Below, piece after piece: positions 1,027-5,758 of a stretch of 5,758 nt of DNA; position 1 is the first letter of the stretch; each line of letters starts with the position of its first letter. This DNA is from a virus: positions 1 to 5,758 of the IMG/VR virus record IMGVR_UViG_3300022758_000325. The stretch is one strand, 5' to 3'. The notes under the pieces were generated by a model, which was not told the DNA's origin, ran no database searches, and worked only from the letters and a program-made list of their open reading frames with translations. Made by a program: the position numbers and the translations under genes.

Positions 1027-1161
1027 ATGAGCTTATCGAATGCAGAACTTTACCCACAATTTTTAGTTTTGTATTACTCTGCTGAAAAATCCGGTCGTTT
1101 AGTTGAACTTCTGGAAATTGGTATTGCTTCGAATTTTCATGATTGCTGTTTCCGCTATTGA
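1027..1161 (+). CDS. Possible small ORF (44 aa, MSLSNAELYPQF...)
   Basis: This is the first ATG after the leader hairpins. Its SD-like AAAGGA (1007-1012) is about 12-14 nt upstream, which is long. I recognise no motif. It overlaps the next small ORF, which lies in another frame. Confidence 0.3.
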   Translation: MSLSNAELYPQFLVLYYSAEKSGRLVELLEIGIASNFHDCCFRY

Positions 1162-1638: not shown

Positions 1639-2473
1639 ATGGTTCAGTACAACAAGTCTGTTGTTACTGATACTGGAACTTATTCTATTGATTATTTTAC
1701 TTTTGACTTTCTTCTTTTAACTACAATTCGCATATTTGATTTGCTTCTTCTTGAAATAGAGAAACTTAAGAGTTCTTGTATCAAGTATCAACACTTCCAA
1801 ACTAATTATTTTGGTAATTTGAAAGAAGTTTTCAATGTGATTCACTTCATATTGAGCTTTCACAAAATAATTTTCAACTTCGTCTTTCGTTTAATCCGAA
1901 TCACTGTATAAATTCCTCTATATTGGTGTTCTTGCTCCGCTTTGTTCGTGTTAACTGTTCCGTTATTGCATTTCGTGTTTCTCGTTGTGATTTCACTTAC
2001 GATATTCCTTTTCATCCTGATTCTGTTATGTTGCTTACTCGGAAAAATGAAGGTCACTTAAAATCTACTCGTTATTATGGTGTGCGTGGTACATCCGGTT
2101 ATCTTCGTATTTATGACAAGCGCTTGGAAGAACAGTCTCGGTTAAAGGATGATTTGATAGGTCATGATTTAACTCGTCTTGAATGGGAAGTCCGTAATGA
2201 ACAGCCTTTTAAGTTTGATCAATTTGCTGTTCCTGATTTCTCATCTCTTTCTGGTGCTGTTGCTCTTCTTAAATATGTAGCTCCTGAGAATTATAATGCT
2301 GCTTTGCTTGAGCTTGATAAGCGCACTCGTAAGAAAGTAAAAGATTCTGTTTTTACTCCATATCCTTTGATCCTGAGTTTTTTTTCCACCTCAAGGAAGT
2401 CTATCTCAGAGAATACGGCTTGCTTGACACGTTCCCGCAGTCGTGGCCGTCTAAGTTGGATGTATGTATATAG
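1639..2473 (+). CDS. Rep_trans-family (pT181 RepC / CTXphi RstA type) rolling-circle replication initiator, with the reading frame interrupted by two -1 shifts
   Basis: ATG 1639 has SD AAGGGGG (1626-1632) at 6-nt spacing. The first frame carries the N-terminal motif YSIDYFTF. The next frame (open from 1818) carries HIELSQNNFQLRL, VSRCDFTYDIP, YYGVRGTSGYLRIYDKRLEEQ and LTRLEWEVRNE. The third frame (open 2333-2473) gives FDPEFFFHLKEVYLREYGLLDTFPQSWPSKLDVCI and stops at TAG 2471-2473, 6 nt before the tRNA. The family assignment comes from remembered motifs, not a search. Confidence 0.7.
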
Positions 2474-2479
2474 CTATTT

Positions 2480-2553
2480 CGCGGGGTGGTGCAATGGTAG
2501 CACGTCACGCTCTGAATGTGAAACTGCTGGTTCGAGTCCAGACCCCGCAACCA
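2480..2553 (+). tRNA. tRNA with anticodon CUG (Gln by anticodon), encoded CCA end and an initiator-type acceptor stem with a C1xA72 mismatch
   Basis: I folded the cloverleaf manually. The acceptor is CGCGGGG (2480-2486) with CCCCGCA (2543-2549), followed by A73 and CCA (2551-2553). U8 is present. The D arm is GTGC-AATGGTA-GCAC, which includes GG. The anticodon arm is TCACG-CTCTGAA-TGTGA, with U33, anticodon CTG at 2512-2514 and A37. The variable region is 4 nt. The T arm is GCTGG-TTCGAGT-CCAGA, with a TTCGA loop and a G49xA65 mismatch. Confidence 0.85.
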
Positions 2554-2601
2554 AAACGGATTTGACTTCCGTTATTTGATGCCGTGAAAGGTGGTGGCGA
2601 A

Positions 2602-3864
2602 GTGAAGAAAAAGCAGCGGTGCTTATTGAAGCGCTTCGTCGCCCTTGTCGCGGTTCTGATGTTTTGTGCGTCTCTTTGTGTCCCTGCGTTTGCTTCAAAT
2701 AATGCTCAATGGCGTAAATGGGTTATTACTGATGAAGCTATGTTACCTAATGAGCAGGGTACTAATTCAAAATATTTTCAGCTTACACCCTTTCAGGATG
2801 GTGCTGTTTATGCTGCTGTCGTTCAGTCTTTTTCCTCGAAGTTCCGTTTTACTGTTACTAATGATGATGGCTCCTCTGTTCATGGTGGCAATTCTTTTGC
2901 GCTGAATTGCTATAATTATCCTGATTGGTGGCGCTCTGCTATTCCTTTAGGTGCTTTGTCTTATATTCAAGTTGTGCCTAAGTCTATCGGGTATGCTTCT
3001 TCGCCTTTTGCATCTTCTTGGACTTCTGCTTCTACTGCTCGTCTTTACTTTTTTGATAGTAATAATCGTATTGACTCCCTTGTTTGGTCTACTGCTGGGG
3101 ACTCTTCTAATCTTACTTCTGTTGGCGGTTATTCTACGGCTGTTGCTCCTCATATTTATCTGACTGAAGCTTCCTTTCCCACCGAACCTTCTACTTTTAT
3201 TGTCTGTGGTGCTTTATGGGTGAATGTTGGGCAAACTTACCGTGTTTCCCTTTCCAGTTTCCAGAATATTGTTACAGGTTGGCCCATTATCTCGTCTGAT
3301 ACTCCTACTTTGGGCGTTGGGCTTTCTACTGCTTATCTTACTAATTTGTCTTCTGATCGTCTCGTTATGGGTGTTCGCGTTAATGACGGTTTTTATTGTA
3401 TGATGACTGCTGAGATCACTTTTTGGGTTGATGCTAATAAGTTGCCCTCTGGTCTTAAAGTTGGCGATGAATTCCCAGCTGATACTGATGCTTTTGATGA
3501 TTTGCGTGATTCTCTTATTGAACAGTTCCCGGAAGCTTCTGATAATATCCAAAATGGCAAGGACACTTTGACCGGTTGGAATGATACTGATACCGTAGAT
3601 ATTGATGTTGCTTCATCTGCTATGTCTGTTCTTAACGCCTTGTTTCAGAATCTCGGTTCTTTCCTCTTCATTGTTTCTCTTATGGTTTTCGGTGCTGTTG
3701 TTCTTCGTATGTTCATTAAAAAGGCGGTGTGGATGACTTTTACTGAATTCTTTAAGCAGGTTTTCGGGTTGTTTGGTTCCGGTGGCGCGCTCGTGATTGC
3801 CGTTGTCGTTTTCCTTGTTTCTCTCGGCATTTATAAATTCGTAAAGGATTGGTTACCATGGTAG
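2602..3864 (+). CDS. Secreted 420-aa protein with C-terminal membrane anchors; pIII-like adsorption or minor coat protein candidate
   Basis: GTG 2602 has SD AAGGTGG (2588-2594) at 7-nt spacing, which is more convincing than the GTG at 2584. The N-terminus MKKKQRCLLKRFVALVAVLMFCASLCVPAFA/SNN is a classic signal peptide. A long Ser/Thr/Gly-rich ectodomain follows, then two hydrophobic helices at the C-terminus. It is the largest ORF in the structural block. The function rests on architecture only. Confidence 0.7.
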   Translation: MKKKQRCLLKRFVALVAVLMFCASLCVPAFASNNAQWRKWVITDEAMLPNEQGTNSKYFQLTPFQDGAVYAAVVQSFSSKFRFTVTNDDGSSVHGGNSFALNCYNYPDWWRSAIPLGALSYIQVVPKSIGYASSPFASSWTSASTARLYFFDSNNRIDSLVWSTAGDSSNLTSVGGYSTAVAPHIYLTEASFPTEPSTFIVCGALWVNVGQTYRVSLSSFQNIVTGWPIISSDTPTLGVGLSTAYLTNLSSDRLVMGVRVNDGFYCMMTAEITFWVDANKLPSGLKVGDEFPADTDAFDDLRDSLIEQFPEASDNIQNGKDTLTGWNDTDTVDIDVASSAMSVLNALFQNLGSFLFIVSLMVFGAVVLRMFIKKAVWMTFTEFFKQVFGLFGSGGALVIAVVVFLVSLGIYKFVKDWLPW

Positions 3865-4025
3865 ATTTTGTTTCAACACTTGGTACGGTTACCTCGTTTA
3901 TTGCTAATGTGCTGAATCTCCCTTTCTTTGGCTTCGGTACCTTTGGTAACTTCGTTCTTGTCTGTCTCCTGCTTTCGCTTGTTGGTTTTGTTCTTCGTGG
4001 CCTTTGGGATGGAGGTGATAAATAA
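3858..4025 (+). CDS. 55-aa double-hydrophobic membrane protein (pVI/pVII/pIX-like minor virion or assembly protein candidate)
   Basis: It falls below the 60-aa cutoff of the ORF track. ATG 3858 overlaps the upstream stop (ATGGTAG). SD AAGGATT (3844-3850) is at 7-nt spacing. The product is MVDFVSTLGTVTSFIANVLNLPFFGFGTFGNFVLVCLLLSLVGFVLRGLWDGGDK. Its stop TAA overlaps the next ATG (TAATG). Confidence 0.65.
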   Translation: MVDFVSTLGTVTSFIANVLNLPFFGFGTFGNFVLVCLLLSLVGFVLRGLWDGGDK

Positions 4026-4423
4026 TGGAAGTTCCTACTATTATTAAAACTTGGGTTGATTCTGACGGCGTTTCCGTCTATACAGTGCAGTATAAAGATG
4101 GTAGCACTTGCGATATGACAGTCCAGCAGTACGATTATCTCAAGGCATCCGCGCAGGCTGTCGCCGACTTGGATGCTAATGCTTCTGCTGATTCTCAGAC
4201 GGAAGAAACTCCTGCTCCCGCTGAACCTGCGCAGAACATTTCCGAAAGTCCGGACCTTCGTGATGGCTATGTACCGCAGGAAGAAGATTTACCTTTTGAG
4301 GGGAGTTTGACAGCTTATGATGACCGCGCCGCAGATACTCCGGCTCTGTATGTTAATCTCCCTGCTGTCTCTAATAGTTTCACTGCTATTATGGATTGGT
4401 TCGGTGATACGTTTTTTTATTGA
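4025..4423 (+). CDS. Acidic 132-aa protein without a TM segment, function unknown
   Basis: ATG 4025 has SD GGAGG (4011-4015) at 9-nt spacing and is translationally coupled to the 55-aa ORF. A compact N-terminal segment is followed by an Asp/Glu/Pro/Ala-rich low-complexity region. By eye its codon usage is more G/C-ending than the neighbouring genes. Confidence 0.75.
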   Translation: MEVPTIIKTWVDSDGVSVYTVQYKDGSTCDMTVQQYDYLKASAQAVADLDANASADSQTEETPAPAEPAQNISESPDLRDGYVPQEEDLPFEGSLTAYDDRAADTPALYVNLPAVSNSFTAIMDWFGDTFFY

Positions 4424-4436
4424 ACGGAGTGAGACG

Positions 4437-4784
4437 GTGCACAAGTCCGGCTTTACGTCTGAAAGGTACTCCTATAATAGTTCGACTCAACTTATTCAGC
4501 TCCCTTACGAGGAAGATATTACTACTACATCTCAAGTTCTCAACCCGCAAGCTTGCGTTTCTGCTTTGCTTGTTGTCCTTGTCTTCATTACTACTGTTAC
4601 TTGGATTAAAAACGCGATTTGGGGGCGGCATGAGCTGATGGAAATTTTACCTTTTGCAATATTGTTTCGGCATCTTTTCTGTCCCCGAAATTGGTTATTT
4701 TATTATTTTCGCTGCTGTTTTCTCTATGTTGGTTCTCCTGTTGCGTCCGTGACAGGTTCCAAAATATTTTTTTTGAAAGGGTGA
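4437..4784 (+). CDS. Membrane protein candidate (115 aa from GTG 4437); the 3' half is uncertain
   Basis: GTG 4437 has SD-like ACGGAGT (4424-4430) at 6-nt spacing. There is a clear TM segment ACVSALLVVLVFITTVTWI followed by basic KNAIWGRH. After about 4640 the translation becomes Cys/Trp/Phe-rich and the other frames give equally plausible hydrophobic peptides. It ends with tandem TGA TGA (4782-4787). Confidence 0.45.
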   Translation: MHKSGFTSERYSYNSSTQLIQLPYEEDITTTSQVLNPQACVSALLVVLVFITTVTWIKNAIWGRHELMEILPFAILFRHLFCPRNWLFYYFRCCFLYVGSPVASVTGSKIFFLKG

Positions 4785-4790
4785 TGACTT

Positions 4791-4982
4791 CAGACTCCTT
4801 CTACTTCCATTGTTGGCGCGCTGCTTTCTCAGGTCGGCGAATTTTTCACTCAGATGATTACTTGGATGGGTCAGCTGATTGATTTCTACGAGCAGCAGCC
4901 GATTCTTCTCGTATTCGTCATTCTGACGATTGCAGGAATCGTGCTTCGTCTTCTCCGCCGTTGGATTCCTGGCCGTTCCTAA
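4791..4982 (+). CDS. Major-coat-protein-like ORF (amphipathic/acidic N-part, TM, basic C-terminus); start codon unresolved
   Basis: The frame is open from 4788 to 4982: (L)QTPSTSIVGALLSQVGEFFTQMITWMGQLIDFYEQQPILLVFVILTIAGIVLRLLRRWIPGRS. The TM followed by RLLRRW is the typical DNA-contacting tail of inovirus coat proteins. A strong terminator directly follows, as after gene VIII of Ff phages. The only in-frame ATGs (4854, 4866) lack an SD, and the SD at 4777-4783 is followed by CAG 4791. The conservative alternative is 4854-4982 (42 aa). Confidence 0.5.
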   Translation, partial: QTPSTSIVGALLSQVGEFFTQMITWMGQLIDFYEQQPILLVFVILTIAGIVLRLLRRWIPGRS

Positions 4983-5053: not shown

Positions 5054-5677
5054 ATGGTTTATGGTATTCTTATCTTTTGTATTTGCTGGCTTTTTGTATA
5101 TATCGATAATTATTGCAAAAATCCCTACAAATTGGAAGCTGTTGTTGGTTCAAAAGGTTCTGGCAAATCTCTGTATATGTCTCGTGTTGCTGATAAGTGG
5201 CTACGTTCTAATAAAGGGCTTATTTATAGCAATATGGGTATTGGTTATGAGTTAGAGCCGGAATATTGGAAACAGACCTTTGTTCCTGATTCCCTTATTC
5301 TTATTGATGAGATAGGCGTGCTCCACTCTAATCGTGATTTTAAGACTATGCCACGGGATGCTGTCGAGTTTTTCAAGATGCAGCGCAAATATCATTTAAC
5401 AATTATTGTATCTTCTCAAACTATGGATTTTGATAAAAAGATTCGTGACCTCTGCGACCGTATTTATTTATGCAATCGCATTGGCTGGTTCTGTCGCCTT
5501 ACTCCCTATCGCTCCTGTATCGCTATGGAACATCGCCCCGAGGGGGGCCAAGAGTTGGTCAACACGGTGCGGAAGGCGGGTCGGGCAAGGTGGTATACTA
5601 TCCCCAAGTCCGTGAAGCTGGTGAGTGCCTTAGAATACGATACAGAGCAGGTTATCACTAAGACCCCCTCGAAATAA
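5054..5677 (+). CDS. Zot / pI-family P-loop assembly ATPase (207 aa) with an N-terminal TM helix
   Basis: ATG 5054 has SD AAGGATT (5040-5046) at 7-nt spacing. Walker A is VVGSKGSGKS and Walker B is SLILIDEIG. FFKMQRKYHLTIIVSSQ matches the Zot-family HRH-G-D-I-Q block. The N-terminus MVYGILIFCICWLFVYI is hydrophobic. The upstream extension to 4961 in the ORF track runs through the terminator hairpin and is not credible. Confidence 0.85.
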   Translation: MVYGILIFCICWLFVYIDNYCKNPYKLEAVVGSKGSGKSLYMSRVADKWLRSNKGLIYSNMGIGYELEPEYWKQTFVPDSLILIDEIGVLHSNRDFKTMPRDAVEFFKMQRKYHLTIIVSSQTMDFDKKIRDLCDRIYLCNRIGWFCRLTPYRSCIAMEHRPEGGQELVNTVRKAGRARWYTIPKSVKLVSALEYDTEQVITKTPSK

Positions 5678-5758
5678 AAACTTCCCCCCGTGCCCTTTAG
5701 GGTCAGGGGGGTTGTTTTTATTTCTTCTTTAGTCATGCCATGCGATGACCCAAGGCAT
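5632..5758. repeat. Terminal direct repeat (copy 2), identical to 1-127
   Basis: See copy 1. It contains the true 3' end of the Zot-like CDS, the second image of the terminator (5676-5719) and the 3' end of the minus-strand 76-aa CDS (5729-5758, partial duplicate of 98-127). Confidence 0.97.
5676..5719. terminator. Bidirectional terminator (same physical element as 45-88)
   Basis: The sequence is identical to 45-88 (offset 5631). Confidence 0.8.

Follow-up and report, generated by a model that had tools for sequence, protein, structure and literature searches.

A replication initiator gene split by private one-base deletions, and an initiator-like tRNA beside it, in a gut inovirus contig

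The window analysed here is the whole 5,758-nt stretch of the IMG/VR virus record IMGVR_UViG_3300022758_000325. It consists of a 5631-nt unit followed by an exact terminal direct repeat of 127 nt, an assembly overlap, and thus holds a complete circular genome. A Zot/pI-type morphogenesis ATPase is encoded at 5054-5674 (PF05707, 24.4 bits against a cut-off of 20.3), and the records of the relatives annotate the same gene as 'zonular occludens toxin'. This ATPase, the small circular genome and the small hydrophobic coat proteins are features of Inovirus (Tubulavirales), and the phage is a small filamentous phage of the gut. Firmicutes-infecting inoviruses are known from the pig and human gut (PMC9723715, PMC6813254). 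We compared the window with relatives drawn from GenBank, IMG/VR, ENA/JGI metagenomes and one Oscillospiraceae MAG (L026). Its nucleotide identity to the gut inoviruses deposited in GenBank as 'UNVERIFIED: Inovirus sp.' (MT135287-MT135311) is 82-91%. The window and these phages have in common Zot/pI, the small circular genome, the gene order and an Oscillospiraceae-linked prophage relative, whereas frame-breaking indels occur in the window contig only. Large bacterial contigs carry some of the relatives as integrated copies (L017, 26.9 kb; L022, 138 kb; the MAG L026), and L024 is a deletion variant. The features discussed below are listed in Table 1.

Table 1. Features of the window, with positions in the 5,758-nt stretch
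Feature	Position	Strand	Remarks
Private +1 T insertion	1143..1144	+	Splits ORF 1028-1252; ATGA-TGCT in 10/10 relatives; one T out gives a 74-aa ORF from ATG 1028
Rep N-terminal segment, frame 1 (MVQYNK...NLKEVF)	1639..1832	+	Residues 1-65 of the relatives' intact Rep; dN/dS 0.08 vs L010
Deletion no. 1 (private, 1 nt), frame changes from 1 to 3	1829..1832 (T4 run)	+	T5, GTTTTTCA, in 21/21 relatives; T4 in window only
Rep central segment, frame 3 (QCDSLHIEL...RCDFTYD...YYGVRGTSGYLRIYDK...LTRLEWE...TPYP)	1833..2368	+	dN/dS 0.13
Deletion no. 2 (private, 1 nt), frame changes from 3 to 2	2366..2368 (T3 run)	+	T4 in 18/18 informative relatives
Rep C-terminal segment, frame 2 (DPEFFFHLKEVYLREYGLLDTFPQSWPSKLDVCI, TAG 2471-2473)	2369..2473	+	dN/dS 0.075
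T8 run, ordinary in-frame Phe-Phe-Phe stretch, not junction	2378..2385	+	L010: GAG TTT TTT TTC within intact ORF
tRNA, anticodon CUG, C1xA72 mismatch (initiator-like acceptor stem)	2480..2553	+	ARAGORN; Rfam 52 bits
Private 2-nt deletion + substitution	3728..3731	+	Window GGCGGT--GTGGATGAC vs GGCGGTTGACGGATGAC in four relatives
Private +1 T insertion in T7 run	4412..4418	+	Splits 203-aa 'protein F' homologue (4025-4638); thirteen relatives one base shorter: T6, T5 or broken run
Private +1 G insertion near end of 'protein F' homologue	4627..4628	+	GGGGGC-GCATG in all relatives
Private +1 T insertion in T4 run	4652..4655	+	Parts ATG 4638 from body of 37-aa hydrophobic ORF; CC-T[T/G]T, one base fewer, in all relatives; ORF repairable
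Major-coat-like gene	4775..4982	+	SD GAAAGGG 4775-4781; in-frame stops TGA TGA 4782-4787; CAG 4791-4793 likely start; TAA 4980-4982

An earlier note on this DNA had described a replication initiator (Rep) gene spread over three reading frames. This layout is borne out in the sequence, and all three frames show homology to intact Rep. Frame 1 runs from ATG 1639 to TAA 1909-1911. Following TAA 1815-1817, frame 3 opens at 1818 and continues across the tRNA gene to TGA 2577-2579. Frame 2 is open from 2333 to 2473 and stops 6 nt short of the tRNA; the Rep stop lies at the same distance upstream of the tRNA in intact close relatives. A run of eight Ts (T8) is present as described. With the intact Rep of MT135307 as tblastn query, residues 1-98 aligned to frame 1 (E 2e-37), residues 80-264 to frame 3 (E 6e-115, 91% identity) and residues 259-293 to frame 2 (E 7e-15). 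By these scores we consider the homology of all three frames to be far above chance.

The assignment of this gene to the Rep_trans family holds at the level of a profile, but not for the window's own sequence against the Pfam threshold. Both the repaired and the central sequence score 15.0-15.2 bits with PF02486, below the gathering cut-off of 29.6, and the Rep of the nearest relative, L010, gave no match to this model at E<=0.01. PF02486 is matched by 8/20 Rep homologues (best E 3.2e-7). A profile built from the family alignment and run with hmmsearch against the PDB matched the catalytic core of 4CWE_A (E 1.6e-11) and 4CWC_A (E 9.5e-11) over profile positions 88-217. The invariant blocks R-x-D-x-x-x-D, T-R-Y-Y-G, Y-D-K-R-x-E and R-x-E-W are present, and the tyrosines Y146, Y147, Y159 and Y256 are invariant. 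The window's Rep family thus shares the catalytic-core profile match and the invariant blocks with pT181 RepC, pC221 RepD and the pSTK1 Rep (PDB 4CWC, 4CWE). In contrast to those initiators, the window Rep, 278 aa long, diverges in its N- and C-terminal parts and belongs to a distant phage branch. We predict it to be a distant rolling-circle initiator of the Rep_trans type. A search of PHROGs gave a marginal match only (phrog_453, E 0.035).

Rep is split over three frames because the contig lacks a single T at two sites where every relative has one. An alignment of the window with MT135307 and MT135309 contains exactly two 1-nt gaps across 954 nt. At the second junction all 18 informative relatives read TAT CC[T/C] TT[T/C] (Y-P-F), with one T fewer in the window only. 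The earlier note had placed this junction at the T8 run. We found instead that the homology changes frame between TAT CCT and TT-G (2364-2368), 10 nt upstream of T8, and that frame 2 of the window already encodes F-D-P-E-F-F-F, corresponding to F-N/E/D-P-E-F-F-F in the relatives. That frame 3 seems to read through the tRNA gene is a side effect of the second deletion. When we scanned IMG/VR for the T4 state of junction 1, we detected just two chance 21-mer matches in unrelated contigs of 44-51 kb, and the T3 state of junction 2 had no matches there.

All 18 complete relatives carry Rep as one continuous ORF of 278-286 aa, and a protein database of 5.8 billion clusters holds 15 full-length Rep clusters of 278-291 aa with 638 member sequences. 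Putting the two Ts back yields an ORF of 278 aa that is 97% identical to L010, with 9 amino acid differences. The earlier note had named read support for an extra base at both junctions, restoring one continuous ORF, as grounds for refuting the split; here the extra bases are supported by the comparison with relatives. The overall dN/dS of the repaired Rep against L010 is 0.115 and 24 of the 29 differences fall at third codon positions, which shows purifying selection on the repaired frames. We read the gene as an ordinary single ORF of 278 codons (1639-2473) ending 6 nt before the tRNA gene; in this contig it is interrupted by two one-base losses in short T runs, T5 to T4 and T4 to T3. In an exact-sequence cluster look-up, the 90-aa N-terminal Rep fragment and a truncated 132-aa fragment of 'protein F' are singleton clusters found on a single contig; the window's intact SSB-like and Zot proteins fall in clusters of 222 and 3081 members. 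A look-up of encoding contigs, aimed at the source contig or a twin assembly, had no entry. In a protein search with both out-of-frame tails, the only matches were the fragment from the window itself and two spurious ORFs translated across the tRNA gene in other phages. Gene callers have already made orphan fragments from the lesions, and the protein database lists these as singleton clusters.

The earlier note had left three options for the split gene. Our comparison supports two of them, a defective genome and indel errors, but not the third, programmed recoding. With programmed recoding, Rep would be made through two -1 events, by ribosomal frameshifting or by slippage of the RNA polymerase, one of them at T8, giving Rep isoforms. 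We reject this explanation as very improbable because a slippery heptamer, a stimulatory fold and conservation are all lacking. Both shifts do have the same sign (-1), and a slip of tRNA-Phe on U_UUC at 1830-1833 would, as read from the sequence, recreate the wild-type peptide KEVFQ. However, neither junction contains an X_XXY_YYZ heptamer: the sequence is GAA GTT TTC AAT at the first and TAT CCT TTG ATC at the second, and agT_TTT_TTT lies 10 nt downstream of the latter. In favour of recoding, one U added at T8 would give a Rep with only 4 changed residues (LILS for FDPE). T8 was found in only 2/20 sequences, the window and L010. It is in frame in L010 and interrupted in the other relatives (TTTTTCTT, TATTTTTT, ATATTCCAG), which argues against its proposed role as a slippery site of frame change. 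Positions 2369-2445 fold a little better than shuffled sequences (z -2.0, 8/200 shuffles), though the hairpin includes the T8 run itself. We found no downstream stimulatory fold after junction 1 (1834-1910, z -0.56) or after T8 (2386-2479, z +0.60).

Conservation of the shifts among related genomes, which the earlier note had suggested looking for, is absent, as every relative has a single ORF. A shift is required in 0/21 relatives, in 0/15 full-length protein clusters and not in L010, which is 91% identical. Furthermore, five other frame-altering indels occur in the same contig at sites unable to be slippery (TT, GG, T4), and two inefficient events in series would leave almost no initiator protein. 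The window shares with programmed -1 frameshifting, as in dnaX, IS elements and the G/GT phage tail-assembly chaperone, a coding signal that carries on in the -1 frame past the zero-frame stop. In contrast to these systems it lacks a slippery heptamer, and neither a stimulator nor the two-frame layout is conserved. Transcriptional slippage at long A/T runs occurs in transposases of IS elements, in Thermus dnaX and in the rescue of frameshifted genes in Buchnera/Blochmannia. A T8 run within the gene is common to those cases and the window, but here it lies off the frame junction and is not conserved. As the criterion for transcriptional slippage we took a conserved homopolymer of at least ~8-9 A/T located precisely where the frame changes, and no such run is present. 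The T4 and T3 runs at the true junctions are too short for slippage to be efficient. Alternative genetic codes and stop reassignment were also discarded: the frame changes at the breaks, which are not in-frame stops, and the codon read by the tRNA is CAG, which is no stop codon. This outcome keeps a rolling-circle initiator from being wrongly reported as a case of double programmed frameshifting.

The contig contains eight small private indels, seven of them frame-altering and located in five genes (two in Rep and five in four other genes). The six beyond Rep lie at 882 and at the five further sites in Table 1. Through the lesion at 3728-3731 a g3-like gene loses its stop and is fused to the next small ORF (ATG 3733). 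The homologue of 'protein F' is detected in two frames by tblastn, and repair yields 203 aa. Mending the six single-base indels restores all affected ORFs; the 2-nt lesion at 3728-3731 was left out of that repair. The private indels of the relatives with lengths other than 3n are nearly all in intergenic DNA, and a Fisher test of 7/72 vs 3/476 gave p = 7.5e-5. For private coding substitutions, the synonymous to nonsynonymous counts are 50:22 in the window compared to 308:168 in the pooled relatives (p = 0.51), and the window's private substitutions depart from the neutral expectation with p = 1.6e-14. The damage consists of indels only and the substitutions are far from neutral; therefore the genes were under selection along essentially the whole terminal branch. 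We flag the public contig as bearing about eight indel lesions.

These comparisons make the split Rep of the contig either an error in the sequence or a dead copy; programmed recoding is not its cause. We infer a technical origin of the indels, in assembly, sequencing or base calling, which is the most likely cause and which we hold to be somewhat probable. The frame breaks would then come from indel errors during sequencing or assembly, with no recoding mechanism involved. We judge it rather unlikely that the indels are real mutations of a recently inactivated, non-autonomous phage copy in which Rep and several morphogenesis genes are broken; it might be a tandem prophage in decay or a defective variant that depends on a helper. 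Such a copy is favoured by the 127-nt terminal overlap, which equals the top k-mer of SPAdes/metaSPAdes and suggests a de Bruijn short-read assembly, where indel errors are rare; eight indels in 5.6 kb are unusual for Illumina data. Ion Torrent and hybrid data are also assembled with SPAdes, so the overlap does not decide against technical error. At 3728-3731 the change is complex, involves 2 nt and is no homopolymer miscall, which speaks against purely technical slips, and the integrated relatives and the deletion variant among the phages compared likewise favour real mutations. However, at least seven independent frame-altering mutations would be needed without relaxed selection on substitutions, since the private ratio of nonsynonymous to synonymous changes is not above that of the intact relatives. 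Neutral decay normally brings several substitutions per indel, and the best estimate for neutral substitutions on the window's branch is about zero. The contig also assembles as a circle, and the same truncated products were found in no other public assembly by the cluster look-up and the tail search.

The observation on the tRNA and the coat gene start codon is more valuable than the Rep frameshift. The tRNA is conserved beside Rep and is part of no protein-coding frame, and 11/19 of its pairs have covariation support. It could be viewed as a mere attP copy, but this is unlikely, as its stems co-vary and the tRNA is internal to the phage in prophage-like contigs. Its identity is 74% to E. coli tRNA-fMet, compared to 58-66% to phage elongator tRNA-Gln. 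Formylation is determined by the lack of a Watson-Crick 1:72 pair together with G2:C71 and C3:G70. Across 10 representative inovirus tRNAs, position 1:72 is C.A or G.A, C3:G70 occurs in 10/10 and G2:C71 in all except L040 and L041; an exception among the inovirus tRNAs is L167 with U1-A72. The phage elongator tRNA-Gln has a paired 1:72 and discriminator G. The anticodon is not the CAU of an initiator: the window has CUG, and its homologues have CGU, UGU or AGU. The anticodon stem of the window is UCACG/UGUGA with one G.U beside the loop, and 11:24 is U11:A24 and not A11:U24. The three consecutive G:C pairs of the initiator anticodon stem are not found in the window, and GGG/CCC is present in L020 only; most inovirus tRNAs differ from E. 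coli initiator tRNAs by lacking these pairs and A11:U24. A scan of IMG/VR for further NGU-type tRNAs returned two larger contigs only, one of which (L155) has an A1xA72 tRNA with anticodon CAG at the end of the locus. A pattern scan for tRNAs of the L038 type gave no matches.

The coat-like ORF has 63 aa with a hydrophobic core and a basic C-terminus. It contains no in-frame ATG, GTG or TTG upstream of 4852, yet codons 1-21 evolve as coding sequence. The coat gene is the sole site in the window genome that combines a SD, a CAG and an ORF. In the window and 25 other genomes of the close clade, in-frame stops precede the coat ORF by one to two codons, there is no usable ATG, GTG or TTG, and an invariant CAG is located at start-codon distance from the coat SD. 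Across homologous inoviruses the tRNA anticodon and the codon at the coat start site co-vary exactly. Anticodon CUG is associated with CAG in many lineages, CGU with ACG in MT135303, MT135301, MT135304, MT135294, MT135306 and MT135311, UGU with ACA in PQ006126, and AGU with ACU in MT135290 and PQ006110. For MT135304 and MT135294 the signal-peptide gene adjoining the tRNA likewise starts at a SD followed by ACG. Relatives without the tRNA have canonical or plausible canonical starts. Two other ways into the coat frame were rejected: the start of a mini-ORF (ATG/TTG AAA GGR TGA) is not conserved, being AAG or ACG in part of the genomes, and no slippery or stop context accompanies a +1 shift from the ATGATG that directly follows the SD.

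We think there is a reasonable chance, somewhat better than even, that the tRNA is a phage-encoded initiator type whose anticodon was changed from CAU to CUG, so that CAG 4791 would serve the coat gene as a private start codon other than AUG. Translation from non-AUG codons is known for E. coli initiator tRNAs engineered to have altered anticodons, such as the i-tRNA CUA (PMC6393288, PMC11744186). The inovirus tRNA resembles them in joining a non-CAU anticodon to an acceptor end of initiator type (1x72 mismatch, G2:C71, C3:G70), and in the presence of its cognate codon at the start-codon position of a gene. Unlike the engineered molecules, the inovirus tRNAs are natural and phage-encoded, their anticodon varies by lineage (CUG, CGU, UGU, AGU) and their function is predicted. 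A literature search found no description of such a coupling between anticodon and coat start codon; if confirmed, it would be a natural case of a virus with its own reprogrammed initiator tRNA. For genomes fetched afterwards, three of the four without the tRNA had a clear SD with ATG or TTG and the fourth, PQ006166, an in-frame GTG, and the anticodon rule foretold the start codon in 5/5 of the tRNA-bearing genomes.

The earlier note had described the replication initiator (Rep) gene of the window as spread over three reading frames, joined by two -1 shifts, one of them at the T8 run 2378-2385. We confirmed each coordinate that it gave for the tRNA gene, the T8 run, the stops and the open frames. 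Rep homology is genuine in all three frames: the uninterrupted Rep of the GenBank inovirus MT135307 aligned to frame 1 at 1594-1893 (E 2e-37), to frame 3 at 1830-2384 (91% identity, E 6e-115) and to frame 2 at 2366-2470 (E 7e-15). In MT135307 the homologous gene is a single continuous ORF of 278 aa counted from its ATG; its alignment with the window, 954 bases long, contains two gaps of 1 nt each and no others. We compared both junctions across 21 relatives (Rep identity 72-97%). At the first we observed G-TTTTT-CA in 21/21 relatives and G-TTTT-CA (1829-1832) in the window alone. At the second, TAT CC[T/C] TT[T/C] stands in each of the 18 informative relatives, and one T is missing (2366-2368) in the window alone. 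The frame change does not fall at the T8 run: frame 2 fits the relatives four codons earlier (FDPEFFF vs FN/E/DPEFFF); the same run is read in frame in the closest relative, L010, and is interrupted in the others. Rep is one ORF of 278-286 aa in each of the 18 complete relatives, and its stop lies 6 nt upstream of the tRNA in the close clade. Among 5.8 billion protein clusters searched, we found 15 with full-length Rep (278-291 aa, 638 members).

The extra base per junction that the earlier note had proposed to look for is carried by the relatives at both sites, and adding both gives one ORF. With one T inserted per site, the repaired ORF encodes 278 aa and shares 97% identity with L010, with 20 synonymous and 9 nonsynonymous differences (dN/dS 0.115; 0.08, 0.13 and 0.075 for the three Rep segments); read in the repaired frame, 24 of these 29 differences affect the third base of a codon. 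The apparent need for two -1 shifts is no biological feature of Rep: the two deletions belong to a set of eight indels private to a flawed or defective contig.

Beyond Rep we detected six more private indels, five of which alter coding frames (see table). Reversal of the six single-base indels, including the two in Rep, brings back every ORF that these hit. The private non-multiple-of-three indels of 15 relatives fall almost only in intergenic DNA, and the contrast in frame-altering indels between window and relatives gave a Fisher p = 7.5e-5 with three ambiguous cases scored against it. For private coding substitutions we counted 50 synonymous and 22 nonsynonymous changes in the window compared to 308 and 168 in the relatives (p = 0.51), and those of the window are far off the neutral expectation (p = 1.6e-14). 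This relative-like, non-neutral ratio shows that purifying selection acted normally on the repaired frames over essentially the whole private history, and yet the same lineage shows seven frame-altering indels. The frameshifted fragments form singleton clusters from one contig, whereas intact proteins of the window belong to clusters with 222 and 3081 members; in the protein database no other protein carries either out-of-frame tail.

Private indels outside Rep and other genes of the window
Feature	Position	Detail
Insertion	882	noncoding
+T	1143-1144	ORF 1028-1252 split
-2 nt	3728-3731	stop lost; g3-like gene fused to next ORF
+1 in T7	4412-4418	203-aa 'protein F' homologue split
+G	4627-4628	near end of 'protein F' homologue
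+T	4652-4655	37-aa ORF cut off from its ATG
Zot/pI-type ATPase	5054-5677	PF05707, 24.4 bits vs cut-off 20.3
Other genes		80-aa SSB-like protein, 380-aa signal-peptide protein, several small hydrophobic proteins, one tRNA

The earlier note had left programmed recoding, a defective genome and indel errors as explanations. The private indels speak for the latter two; recoding shows none of its defining features (heptamer, fold, conservation) and is highly improbable. Physically, a single-tRNA slip on U_UUC 1830-1833 would give the wild-type peptide and RNA-polymerase slippage at T8 would yield Rep with four altered residues, but neither has support, slippage at Rep leaves the five other frame-altering lesions unexplained and the frame layout is conserved in no relative. 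We found no X_XXY_YYZ motif at the two true junctions and no significant stimulatory fold past junction 1 (z -0.56) or past the T8 run (z +0.6). At 2369-2445 the signal is modest (z -2.0) and comes from a hairpin that includes the T8 run itself. An Rfam scan of the window returned the tRNA as its sole match.

The indels are probably technical errors. This is suggested by the indel-only signature with mixed insertions and deletions in short runs, by the number of essential genes affected although the contig still closes into a circle on assembly, and by the uniqueness of the frameshifted products. We regard it as rather unlikely that the contig represents a genuinely crippled genome copy, even though the lesion at 3728-3731 is complex and the terminal overlap speaks against technical errors. 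The window ends are an exact 127-nt direct repeat (1-127 = 5632-5758, circular unit 5631 nt), a length equal to the largest SPAdes k-mer; the overlap suggests that short reads were assembled with a de Bruijn graph, a method in which indels are rare. However, SPAdes is also run on Ion Torrent and hybrid data, which tempers this argument.

The assignment of Rep to Rep_trans held for the family profile, not for the window's own sequence, which at 15 bits is below the Pfam threshold of 29.6 and thus outside strict membership. PF02486 was matched by 8/20 homologues (best E 3.2e-7), and more distant Rep homologues have precomputed PF02486 matches. Across the core, the family profile matched two Rep_trans proteins of known structure, 4CWE and 4CWC (E 1.6e-11), with the family blocks R-x-D-x-x-x-D, T-R-Y-Y-G-x-R, Y-D-K-R-x-E and R-x-E-W. 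Judged by these alignments, Rep is distantly related to Rep_trans initiators and predicted to work alike.

With megablast we found pig-faeces 'UNVERIFIED: Inovirus sp.' genomes 80-90% identical to the window; more relatives came from IMG/VR, human-gut ENA assemblies and one Oscillospiraceae MAG. The window contig itself was traced to JGI/IMG by looking up its exact sequence. Together they fit the Firmicutes-infecting gut inoviruses of PMC9723715 and PMC6813254. Rep is 72-75% identical in three large bacterial contigs, L017 (26.9 kb), L022 (138 kb) and L026 (Oscillospiraceae bacterium UBA4632 MAG), which indicates that the clade occurs as prophages too; Oscillospiraceae are probably its host. 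The tRNA in these three is internal to the phage, away from the attachment boundary. L003-L006 (MT135292/305/293/296) have the structural module and tRNA in common with the window (tRNA identity 95.9% in three, 84.9% in MT135292). Their replication gene is another one, annotated as 'protein A', and replication and structural modules are therefore swapped among these phages. The L009 contig (IMGVR_UViG_3300029874_000159) ends inside Rep, where 35 nt at 3581-3615 repeat window 1893-1927 in inverted orientation; this has the look of a chimeric assembly or a hairpin artefact.

The tRNA gene (2480-2553, anticodon CUG) lies 3' of Rep across the relatives. It is missing, together with the g3-like gene, in the deletion variant L024 (ULXT01002404.1, 805-1460), where Rep is cut to 217 aa with an unrelated tail and the coat genes come directly after it. 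Compensatory changes at 11/19 pairs back the cloverleaf. The acceptor end (C1xA72, G2:C71, C3:G70, discriminator A) is the same as in E. coli tRNA-fMet, whose reference sequence was confirmed in 5426 genomes. Identity is 74% to tRNA-fMet vs 58-66% to phage elongator tRNA-Gln, in which, by contrast, 1:72 is paired and the discriminator is G. Canonical initiator tRNAs have three G:C pairs and A11:U24, whereas most of these inovirus tRNAs have neither, and L167 is an exception with U1-A72. By sequence they are initiator-like at the acceptor end, mostly with a 1x72 mismatch, G2:C71 and C3:G70.

Two in-frame stops directly precede the coat gene (4788-4982), and its first 21 codons, which evolve as coding sequence, contain no ATG, GTG or TTG in frame. 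CAG is invariant at start-codon distance from the coat SD in 26 close-clade genomes (window 4775-4793), and the window has one site with SD, CAG and ORF, at the coat gene. Across L001-L045, L048-L123, L163-L170 and the window, homologous tRNAs with anticodons CUG, CGU, UGU and AGU go with CAG, ACG, ACA and ACU, respectively, at the coat start position in every genome that carries one. In tRNA-bearing genomes the coat gene is without a usable canonical start, often with in-frame stops just 5'; tRNA-less homologues start with SD and ATG, TTG or a plausible ATG. Among about eight further, out-of-sample genomes the predicted codon was present in 5/5 with the tRNA; 3/4 without it have a clear SD with ATG or TTG, and PQ006166 has an in-frame GTG as putative start. 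Engineered E. coli initiator tRNAs with changed anticodons begin translation at the cognate codon (PMC6393288, PMC11744186); our literature search turned up no natural counterpart in phages. The signal-peptide (g3-like) gene directly 3' of the CGU tRNA starts at an ACG spaced from an SD, in the context GGGGG-N7-ACG in L038 (MT135304, about 3512-3600) and AAAGGAGGT-N6-ACG in L040 (MT135294, 224-330), with no ATG in either; more than one gene may therefore use the unusual start codon.

Related tRNAs were also seen elsewhere. The database proteins P0064 (NCBI 'protein B', Uncultured phage WW-nAnB strain 3) and P0065 result from spurious translation across this tRNA gene and the sequence 3' of it, reading AGWCNGSTSRSERET...TKTD.TSVIRCRERWWRSE in other small phages, which indicates that the tRNA and the downstream gene's leader are common to phages with unrelated replication modules. 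L155 (IMGVR_UViG_3300013947_000211), a 12-kb AT-rich contig that is not inovirus-like, has at the locus end a tRNA with A1xA72, G2:C71, C3:G70 and anticodon CAG (reads CUG); initiator-like tRNAs with altered anticodons may thus occur outside inoviruses. In five IMG/VR contigs of 5.6-7.4 kb without a coat homologue (L062, L067, L074, L110, L111) a canonical-looking initiator tRNA (CAU, C1xA72, GGG/CCC anticodon stem) adjoins an odd 91-96-nt 'tRNA-Asp', and the D-arm agrees with that of the inovirus tRNAs.
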